A stretch of 64,000 bases of DNA, taken from NCBI RefSeq assembly GCF_024502345.1, contig NZ_JALDNN010000001.1. One strand, given 5' to 3'. Origin of the DNA: Escherichia coli. Lineage in GTDB: Bacteria; Pseudomonadota; Gammaproteobacteria; Enterobacterales; Enterobacteriaceae. Positions 30,818 to 54,230 of this stretch are shown one piece after another. Below the pieces are notes generated by a model. The model did not search any database, was not told the DNA's origin, and saw only the letters and a program-made list of their open reading frames with translations. Positions within the stretch are counted from its first letter, which is position 1. Every line of letters begins with the position of its first letter. Position numbers and translations under genes: made by a program.

Positions 30818-31150
30818 ATGTACGAAGCTCTTTTGGTAGTTTTCCTTATTGTGGCAATTGGCCTTGTTGGTCTGATCATGCTGCAGCAAGGTAAAGGCGC
30901 TGATATGGGAGCCTCCTTCGGAGCAGGCGCTTCCGCTACGCTGTTTGGTTCAAGTGGTTCTGGTAACTTCATGACCCGCATGACGGCGCTGCTGGCAACG
31001 TTATTCTTCATCATCAGTCTGGTGCTGGGTAACATCAATAGCAACAAAACCAATAAAGGTAGCGAATGGGAAAATCTGAGTGCACCGGCGAAAACCGAAC
31101 AAACTCAGCCAGCTGCTCCGGCTAAGCCGACCAGCGATATCCCGAACTAA
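30818..31150 (+). CDS. secG: protein translocase subunit SecG
   Basis: 110 aa from ATG at 30818 (MYEALLVVFLIVAIGL). Confidence 0.93.
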   Translation: MYEALLVVFLIVAIGLVGLIMLQQGKGADMGASFGAGASATLFGSSGSGNFMTRMTALLATLFFIISLVLGNINSNKTNKGSEWENLSAPAKTEQTQPAAPAKPTSDIPN

Positions 31151-31164
31151 AAAGTAGTATCCGT

Positions 31165-31251
31165 GCCGAGGTGGTGGAATTGGTAGACACGCTACCTTGA
31201 GGTGGTAGTGCCCAATAGGGCTTACGGGTTCAAGTCCCGTCCTCGGTACCA
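31165..31251 (+). tRNA. leuU: tRNA-Leu (anticodon GAG)
   Basis: 87 nt; acceptor stem GCCGAGG/CCTCGGT, anticodon loop CTTGAGG, long variable arm, 3' CCA encoded. Confidence 0.9.
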
Positions 31252-31262
31252 AATTCCAGAAA

Positions 31263-31288
31263 AGAGACGCTGAAAAGCGTCTTTTTTC
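31263..31288 (+). terminator. intrinsic terminator after secG-leuU
   Basis: Hairpin AGACGCTGAAAAGCGTCT followed by TTTTTT. Confidence 0.75.
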
Positions 31289-31325
31289 GTTTTATAAGCC
31301 AGGTTAAGTATTCTTAATTTGATAA

Positions 31326-32279
31326 CTATTTACCTAGGCATAAATCTGTTTCATCTAGTTTGAAATCTGTAATTTCTAACTTTTGCATTATTACCGGAAG
31401 CACTTGGTGAATTATTCTCATGCCAGTAAGGATCTCGTTCATGTATATATCTGGATGAATGCGAGATTTATTGAAATCGAAACGTTCGGCTTCTGCTGCA
31501 ACGCTAAGTTGGTCAGCGGTGTTATAAACCATTTCCAGAAGTTCGGCTCTTAACGGAATTCCCGCCCTGAATGCCATCATCTTGAGTTGATTCAACCAAT
31601 TTTCGTAGTCTTTTTTAACTCTATAACGAAATTCTTTAAAGTTTGACGCAACAGGAGTATCAATTTCAATTTTGCATGCAGCAAGTGATATCAATGAACT
31701 CTGAATATTGATGGCTTCGCTTGAATAGACATCTAAATCGTCGTCCTGAATCAACTCATCAACATATGCTATGTAGAAACCATAAACATCATTCAGAGCA
31801 TGATAAATATCATTAATTACAGAACAATGAGCATTGCTCTCTAATATCTCCCAAAAAGCCTCTTCTTCATCAGCATTATCGTCGTCAATATTAAGTCCTT
31901 CAGGAAAGGAAAGAGGTGTAGGAAAACCTATTCGCTTTAATACATCAATTGTTTCTTCAACCAAAAAACCATCTTCGTCAGTAAGAAGTTGTGTTATATA
32001 ACCCGTTTCAGCATCGTCCATAGCTCGTCGAGCAAGAAAATGGATAAGTCGATCCCATTTCTCAGCATTCGCGACTGAGCCTGTCCATTCAACTAGTTGA
32101 GGAGAATAATCTCCTATTTGTGTAATATTTCTGAACTTTTTTTCCATATCAGCGGACATGTGTTCCCCTTTTTTCCACTTGCTAATTTGTGTTGAGGAAA
32201 CACCTAAGTGGCTTGCTAAATCTTTTTGAGTGCATTTCAGAGTATGTAATGCGAGGCGTACAAAATATTCACCATTCAT
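31326..32279 (-). CDS. hypothetical protein, N-terminal XRE/Cro-type HTH plus unrecognised acidic C-terminal domain; occupies the slot held by yhbX in K-12
   Basis: 954-nt ORF (317 aa) with AAGGA 7 nt before the ATG; N-terminus TQKDLASHLGVSSTQISKWKKGE fits the Cro/C1 HTH pattern; AT-rich (about 33-36% G+C by hand count); function unknown. Confidence 0.75.
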   Translation of the reverse strand: MNGEYFVRLALHTLKCTQKDLASHLGVSSTQISKWKKGEHMSADMEKKFRNITQIGDYSPQLVEWTGSVANAEKWDRLIHFLARRAMDDAETGYITQLLTDEDGFLVEETIDVLKRIGFPTPLSFPEGLNIDDDNADEEEAFWEILESNAHCSVINDIYHALNDVYGFYIAYVDELIQDDDLDVYSSEAINIQSSLISLAACKIEIDTPVASNFKEFRYRVKKDYENWLNQLKMMAFRAGIPLRAELLEMVYNTADQLSVAAEAERFDFNKSRIHPDIYMNEILTGMRIIHQVLPVIMQKLEITDFKLDETDLCLGK

Positions 32280-32290
32280 CGGTCATTCCT

Positions 32291-32379
32291 TTTACTGAGC
32301 ATAAAAACATAAAGTAAAAATAGAATGCGCTGAAATTTACTTTATTTCATTTAACTTTTACTTTAATTCCGAATTCGGA
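32291..32379. promoter_or_regulatory. repeat-rich putative promoter/operator of the 317-aa HTH gene
   Basis: TTTACT at 32291 with inverted AGTAAA at 32313; direct TTTACTTTA at 32336 and 32357 (21-nt spacing); perfect 12-bp palindrome TCCGAATTCGGA at 32368-32379. Confidence 0.3.
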
Positions 32380-32418
32380 CATGGTGGCCCCTAAACGCAG
32401 TCACATTCTCTTAGCCGT

Positions 32419-32443
32419 AAAAAAAGGCCGCATTTGCGGCCTT
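32419..32443 (-). terminator. intrinsic terminator after argG
   Basis: On the minus strand: GGCCGCAAATGCGGCC followed by TTTTTTT. Confidence 0.75.
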
Positions 32444-32462
32444 TAGCACGAAAGCTATGATA

Positions 32463-33821
<1,359 letters not shown>

Positions 33822-52969: not shown

Positions 52970-54230
<1,261 letters not shown>

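Follow-up and report, generated by a model that had tools for sequence, protein, structure and literature searches.

The window, a 64,000-nucleotide stretch of Escherichia coli DNA, contains in order the genes glmM, secG and leuU, an open reading frame for a 317-residue HTH protein (31326..32279, minus strand, ATG at 32279-32277) and argG (32463-33806, minus strand), with the tRNA-Leu gene leuU at 31165-31251 on the plus strand. The HTH gene belongs to a strain-variable 1.18-kb segment (31294..32470) that takes the place of the yhbX segment of K-12-type genomes. This segment has a GC content of ~37%, compared with 51.5% for the whole window, and holds a single gene, the 183-nt spacer upstream of it and its own argG terminator. 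In K-12-type genomes, yhbX fills the gap between leuU and argG and converges on argG, with the two stop codons only 7 nt apart. Homology to these genomes ends on the left after the leuU terminator (31293/31294) and on the right within the last codons of argG (~32470). The right-hand recombination junction of the segment accordingly falls within argG (32463-32475), and the C-terminus of ArgG reads ...ENKVK* in the window strain and ...ENKGQ* in K-12-type strains.

The intrinsic terminator of argG (minus strand, ~32416-32446), a hairpin followed by a run of seven U with a predicted energy of −22.6 kcal/mol (z −4.2), insulates the HTH promoter from argG read-through. In alignments its hairpin is retained in Enterobacter and C. 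koseri with altered stem bases. The terminator is supplied by the cassette; K-12-type genomes do not have a stand-alone one, because yhbX converges 7 nt past the argG stop. At the other end, the leuU terminator hairpin (31259-31288) carries an A run on one side and a T run on the other and has a terminator-like score on both strands, and may also stop the convergent HTH transcript.

Among 5426 complete E. coli genomes, 236 (~4%) carry the HTH gene and 237 the 183-nt spacer, which is full length in the 236 gene carriers; two further Escherichia alleles of the gene exist beside that of the window. The same argG-leuU slot holds orthologues with 68-73% protein identity in C. koseri (L077), Salmonella (L079) and Enterobacter (L081), with conserved flanking genes. 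Judged from these sequences, the distribution points to either an old presence/absence polymorphism with yhbX or repeated allelic replacement.

Two further observations concern the surroundings of the gene. In about 8 of 50 distant loci (L004, L005, L006, L012, L033, L035, L055 and L021), the HTH gene has a tRNA or tmRNA gene as a close neighbour, a few hundred nucleotides away at most, and in the window leuU lies 75 nt downstream of it; such proximity is far commoner than expected from the density of tRNA genes and suggests that tRNA-linked hotspots served as insertion sites, with no integrase seen beside the gene at the tRNA/tmRNA-linked loci. In E. coli, Serratia, Pseudomonas and Acinetobacter, the boundary of the neighbouring called gene falls exactly 183 nt before the start codon (32280-32462 in the window; positions 5818-6000 in L084, L087 and L090). 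The distal boundaries of these four spacers share no sequence similarity, and the common length looks like a coincidence.

A widespread protein family with an XRE-type N-terminus

Only the first ~60 residues of the 317-residue protein resemble anything known. They form an XRE-type HTH whose recognition helix spans approximately residues 29-36, and they are followed by an all-helical C-terminal domain of ~260 residues that leaves four fifths of the protein outside any Pfam family. The window protein itself scores under the Pfam cut-offs (HTH_19, 25.1 bits, cut-off 30.2; HTH_3, 19.2 bits, cut-off 23). Among 70 family members, HTH_3 is recognised in 66 at E ≤ 0.001, and the best of them reaches 2.4e-9; the N-terminal domain has the XRE fold. 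Searches of Pfam, NCBIfam, PADLOC and PHROGs returned a match to the HTH and nothing for the rest of the protein, a sequence-profile search of the PDB gave weak HTH matches only, and the viral structure library BFVD yielded no informative match for the C-terminal domain. The latter matched no known family or fold and contains an invariant patch, H275-P-D-x-Y-x-N-E...R288.

Homology searches returned 745 sequence clusters, and 76 confirmed genomic matches correspond to 73 distinct loci. Full-length homologues with 40-57% identity are patchily distributed in Gamma-, Beta- and Alphaproteobacteria, Desulfuromonas-type genomes and Acidobacteria. One contig (L003; JAIJJM010000762.1, 1485 nt), assigned to a metagenome-assembled genome of a Collinsella sp., matches the E. 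coli gene at 100% identity and is probably mis-binned E. coli DNA. There is no conserved neighbour gene, none being common to more than 4 of 48 loci, and the window cassette consists of the HTH gene alone, with no adjacent toxin gene. A tblastn search of 50,697 phage records gave no match, and matches on plasmids are limited to 5 records. In the literature, no description was found of the protein, its RefSeq accession, the locus variant or the upstream motif described below.

Repeats in the spacer upstream of the HTH gene

A first-pass annotation of the spacer had listed the hexamers TTTACT (32291-32296) and AGTAAA (32313-32318), two direct 9-mers 21 nt apart, a 12-bp palindrome, an AAGGA ribosome-binding site and the argG terminator. 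Inspection of the sequence and a repeat finder located all of these elements exactly where they had been placed. The inverted repeat is in fact 7 nt long (TTTTACT/AGTAAAA), and the 9-mer TTTACTTTA occurs at 32336-32344 and 32357-32365, 21 nt from start to start. A third copy of the 9-mer, missed in that annotation, lies in inverted orientation at 32310-32318 (TAAAGTAAA) and, paired with 32336-32345, makes up a perfect inverted repeat of 10 bp (ATAAAGTAAA/TTTACTTTAT).

In dinucleotide shuffles of 32280-32418, the direct 9-mer repeat was matched in 5.5% of cases, the 12-nt palindrome in 6.2%, a set of three 9-mer copies in 0.7%, and the combination of direct and inverted repeats in 0.5%. By itself, the repeat pattern of the window is only modestly non-random, and its significance comes from the comparative data. 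A loose motif pair, TTTACGGAA and TGAAGTAAA, 21 nt apart, is also found inside a coding region at 53387-53416 (53391/53412); chance alone should yield about one pair of this kind in 64 kb.

The palindrome (TCCGAATTCGGA, 32368..32379) is real and not conserved. Base arithmetic predicts ~16 perfect 12-bp palindromes per 64 kb; the element reads TCCGATTTCGGA and TCCGAATCCGGA in the two other Escherichia alleles and is missing from Salmonella, Enterobacter and C. koseri. It is probably non-functional or lineage-specific. Both roles proposed for it earlier therefore fall away: the variation just described speaks against a part in the operator, and the cassette junction that it might have marked lies ~90 nt away, within the last codons of argG.

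Conservation of the motif at homologous loci

The upstream regions of 48 distant homologue loci (49 counting the window) were compared. All but one of the distant loci (47 of 48, or 48 of 49 with the window) have TTTACT/AGTAAA in the 200 nt preceding the start codon. The distant loci come from many proteobacterial lineages as well as Acidobacteria and Desulfuromonas-type genomes, and the hexamer is usually embedded in a palindrome with the family consensus aTTTA[G/C]TAAAt. Over the 48 distant loci, the upstream regions carry 9.48 motif copies per kb, and the remaining sequence of these loci carries 0.347 per kb. Resolved by position, the 9.48 per kb of the proximal 200 nt compares with 0.1-0.4 further upstream, in coding sequence and downstream. 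The motif was counted 91 times upstream, where shuffled sequence yields 9.7 on average. An unbiased k-mer count likewise returned TTTACTAAA/TTTAGTAAA as the top 9-mer, which 36 of the 48 upstream regions contain and whose background frequency is 0.007 per kb. K-12-type genomes, with their 7-nt yhbX-argG gap, contain no such sites, so that the two expectations of the first-pass annotation, conservation upstream of homologues and absence from K-12, are both borne out.

Adjacent site centres are most often exactly 21 bp apart (36 cases), with 20 bp in 7 cases and 22 bp in 3, and 26 bp is next in frequency. Relative to the best predicted promoter of each locus, the centres cluster at −45, −24, ~+1 and +21. 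The same site pairs are present in three additional, independent loci (Serratia, Pseudomonas and Acinetobacter), and a Polynucleobacter subfamily with 34% identity carries the variant pair GTTACTTAA-N12-TTAAGTAAC, likewise 21 bp apart.

Four sites around a weak promoter

Four copies of the motif, all annotated on the minus strand and here termed O1 to O4, lie in the window upstream of the HTH gene. O1 (32357..32365, centre 32361, −82 from the ATG) reads TAAAGTAAA on the coding strand and lies at about −46 from the predicted transcription start; O2 (32336..32344, centre 32340, −61 from the ATG), also TAAAGTAAA, lies at about −25 in the spacer between the −35 and −10 hexamers; O3 (32310..32318, centre 32314, −35 from the ATG) reads TTTACTTTA on the coding strand and spans the predicted start, placed near 32315, at about +1; and O4 (32291..32299, centre 32295, −16 from the ATG), CTCAGTAAA on the coding strand, lies at about +20 and abuts the ribosome-binding site. 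The E. coli sites consist of TAAAGTAAA three times plus CAGTAAA, each departing from the family consensus at 2 of 9 positions. With a matrix trained on the distant homologues, only O2 scores at least 6 bits in the window, because the E. coli sites represent the variant form TAAA-G-TAAA. O4 is the most degenerate copy in the window, and relatives carry TTTACTAAA at its position.

Since a consensus promoter scan of the window found no site at 9/12 or better, the promoter was placed by reference to the orthologous loci. Its putative −35 hexamer, ATGAAA (32345..32350, minus strand), is assigned by homology only and has 4 of 6 consensus matches; the counterparts are TTGAAA in Salmonella and Enterobacter and TTGCAA in C. 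koseri. The putative −10 hexamer, CATTCT (32322..32327, minus strand), also assigned by homology, is weak (3 of 6 matches); the −10 region is aligned 17 nt downstream of the −35, with hexamers that vary between species (AATAAT in Salmonella, CATAGT in C. koseri). Together, the E. coli hexamers are poor, with 7/12 matches. The Shine-Dalgarno sequence AAGGA (32287..32291, minus strand), 7 nt before the ATG, is conserved in the alignment.

With the promoter placed in this way, the window sites fall at −46, −25, +1 and +20, so that repeated conserved sites overlap the −35, −10 or start of the HTH gene's own promoter. O1 is directly upstream of the predicted −35 hexamer, and its equivalents lie at −44 to −46 in 21 cases. 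From O1 to O4 the spacings are 21, 26 and 19 bp; a 21/26/21 layout is shared by L005, L011 and L014, and the C. koseri locus (L077) has 21/26/20. Across five enterobacterial argG-leuU loci with a mean column identity of 65%, the O1-O4 blocks, the −35 region and the ribosome-binding site are conserved, and the O1 region includes an invariant AAGTAAAA block; O3 is less strictly conserved, and its sequence in Salmonella and Enterobacter is TTCACTTAA. In the two other Escherichia alleles, all four sites are unchanged and the substitutions lie between them: the window and allele L076 differ by 13 substitutions in 105 nt, 0 of 13 being in the 36 nt of the four sites.

Covariation between residue 30 and the operator

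Residue 30 lies at the start of the predicted recognition helix, S-P-T-Q-I-S-K-W-K. Proteins with Thr30 (xTQISKW) are associated with TTTA-S-TAAA sites in 35 loci and never with TTAA-type sites only, and 8 of 11 loci encoding Ala30 proteins have TTAAGTAAA/TTTACTTAA sites; in the Polynucleobacter subfamily, Val30 pairs with GTTACTTAA. In a crude neighbour-joining tree, the Ala/TTAA combination appears at at least 4 separate places, with one exception, L005. This covariation of residue 30 with operator base 3 is indirect evidence that the encoded HTH reads these sites.

For a classical HTH dimer, a palindrome of only 9 bp would be a short target. In the Ala30 lineages, only one half of the site is changed, and these single half-site changes hint that each 9-bp site may be bound by one HTH.

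A putative autoregulated promoter

Taken together, these comparisons make it probable, in our judgement, that the spacer is a multi-operator, negatively autoregulated promoter whose putative sites are read by the HTH of the encoded protein. The first-pass annotation had proposed an autoregulatory operator on the strength of the repeats, and that putative role has gained from the conservation of both the TTTACT-type motif and its 21-bp phasing at the gene's own promoter, in a cassette-specific manner. A promoter of its own would be needed by the HTH gene, because it has no conserved neighbour gene and is separated from argG by a terminator.

In the mechanism that we propose, the gene's weak sigma-70 promoter would be embedded in four copies of a 9-11-bp site, all recognised by the N-terminal XRE-type HTH of the encoded protein. 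The sites would act as two pairs: O1 and O2, 21 bp apart, would bracket the −35 hexamer, and O3 and O4, 19-21 bp apart, would span the transcription start and the leader as far as the ribosome-binding site. The C-terminal domain would hold an oligomer together on sites that are two helical turns apart and thus on one DNA face, either as cooperative dimers or with one HTH per site and bridging C-terminal domains. Protein on O1 and O2 would occlude the −35 hexamer and the spacer, and protein on O3 and O4 the start site and leader; the occupied sites would block the binding or escape of RNA polymerase, so that the gene represses itself. The encoded protein as the binder, its repressive effect, its oligomeric state and its cooperativity are what we infer from this arrangement.

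It is unlikely that the motif is instead bound by something else, be it RNA polymerase, through a UP element or an extended promoter feature, or a host factor. It is true that the motif is rich in A and T and that O1, at about −45, occupies a position at which UP elements act, but the motif also occurs at −24, +1 and +21, where UP elements do not act, its central G/C and its flanks are nearly invariant, and its base 3 varies with residue 30 of the recognition helix. Moreover, the hosts span several phyla, which makes a shared host factor with one fixed site unlikely, the constant element being the co-transferred protein.

Action at the level of RNA, by a leader hairpin between O3 and O4 (UUUUACU...AGUAAAA) that masks the ribosome-binding site or by binding of the protein to leader RNA, appears very unlikely. 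O3 and O4 are inverted in E. coli and lie in the predicted 5' leader, with O4 abutting the ribosome-binding site, and there is a precedent in Aca2, which is reported to control translation by binding leader RNA and whose RNA binding is mentioned in PMC12658196. However, the predicted hairpin is no more stable than those of shuffles (−6.5 kcal/mol, z 0.06), and its pairing is not conserved, since the proximal sites of C. koseri are in direct orientation and O3 is degenerate in Salmonella and Enterobacter; O1 and O2, located upstream at the promoter, cannot act in RNA. An Rfam search over 31100-32600 found nothing above threshold except the tRNA.

We also regard as highly improbable a role of the repeats in the mobility of a small cassette, as sites of recombination or end binding, with the HTH protein as the recombination or transposition factor. 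Such a role would suit a solitary, patchily distributed gene that replaces yhbX as a 1.18-kb unit and that adjoins tRNA/tmRNA genes at 8 of the 50 distant loci, as it does in the window. The sites are one-sided, however, with 9.48 per kb upstream against 0.32 per kb downstream, and are placed relative to the −35, the −10 and the ribosome-binding site rather than to the junctions, and the C-terminal domain has no recombinase or transposase match. Terminal repeats flanking the gene on both sides were also considered and rejected, the sites being absent downstream.

That the repeats are chance low-complexity sequence in an AT-rich acquired segment, possibly a target of H-NS-type silencing, is hardly credible: the spacer does have 35-37% GC against 51.5% for the window, single repeats were each matched in ~5-6% of shuffles and 9-mer matches with ≤2 mismatches number 114 in the window against 124 expected from shuffles, but the motif, the 21-bp spacing and the promoter-relative positions recur in genomes of very different GC, with motif-bearing upstream regions that include ones of 50-56% GC, and chance leaves both the avoidance of the sites by substitutions and the residue 30 covariation unexplained.

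Returning to the autoregulated promoter, a protein that only regulates itself makes little biological sense unless its C-terminal domain is otherwise active or other targets exist, and neither a further activity of that domain nor other targets were found. As a speculative extension, to which we give a rather low likelihood, the HTH gene could form a self-contained single-gene module that is widely transferred and represses itself, a sensor-effector such as a stand-alone defence or addiction-type protein, with its activity in the 260-residue domain and its level kept low, in a signal-releasable manner, by the four-operator promoter. As a result of this analysis, an uncharacterised and widespread protein family gains a concrete predicted DNA target, aTTTA[G/C]TAAAt in pairs 21 bp apart at about −45/−24 and +1/+21, together with a predicted specificity-determining residue at position 30. 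A target so defined also makes it feasible to look genome-wide for other sites of action in those E. coli strains, ~4% of the total, in which the gene replaces yhbX.

Comparison with known systems

Several families of regulators were considered as possible assignments. A type II antitoxin (HigA, MqsA or HipB-like) was rejected in view of the absence of an adjacent toxin gene and of any neighbour in more than 4 of 48 loci, and a regulator of the RRNPP type (PlcR, PrgX) was set aside because no TPR-type peptide-binding domain was found.

The anti-CRISPR-associated autorepressor Aca7 (PDB 9LX1; PMC12658196) is a stand-alone HTH of 68 residues that has one 19-bp inverted repeat, ATGATAACTCAGTTATCAT, as its site. 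The protein described here has instead 317 residues, which include a large additional domain, and four putative sites of 9 bp each, phased at 21 bp. Aca7 regulates an acr operon on a mobile element, whereas the HTH gene has no acr partner and no phage homologues. With no upstream partner gene, no phage match and only 5 plasmid records, assignment as an Aca regulator was rejected.

Controller proteins of restriction-modification (R-M) systems, such as C.AhdI, C.Esp1396I and C.BclI, have ~80 residues and are encoded beside restriction and methylase genes; the present protein differs from them by its 260-residue extra domain. The neighbours of its gene are housekeeping or unrelated genes, with no endonuclease/methyltransferase pair, and it was not classed as a controller protein.

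With the lambdoid repressors (lambda CI, 434 and P22 C2) the protein shares the combination of an N-terminal XRE/Cro-C1 HTH with a C-terminal domain, which in those repressors serves oligomerisation or sensing, and, in the mechanism proposed here, an autoregulated promoter with several operators spaced for cooperative binding on the same face. Lambdoid operators, however, are 14-17 bp long with two clear half-sites, unlike the 9-bp sites described here, and the lambdoid C-terminal domain is a beta-rich S24 peptidase, whereas that of the present protein is all-helical; unlike the lambdoid repressors, moreover, the HTH gene has no prophage context. A repressor of the lambda CI or LexA type was rejected in the absence of a Peptidase_S24 match and given the entirely alpha-helical C-terminal domain.

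In summary, the protein lacks the genomic context or the domains by which the Aca, R-M controller and lambdoid families are defined. The proposed mechanism of regulation is itself an ordinary one, that of an XRE-type autorepressor with multiple operators, and by analogy the arrangement upstream of the HTH gene would work like those of Aca proteins, R-M controllers and lambdoid repressors, in which an XRE autorepressor likewise acts through several operators.
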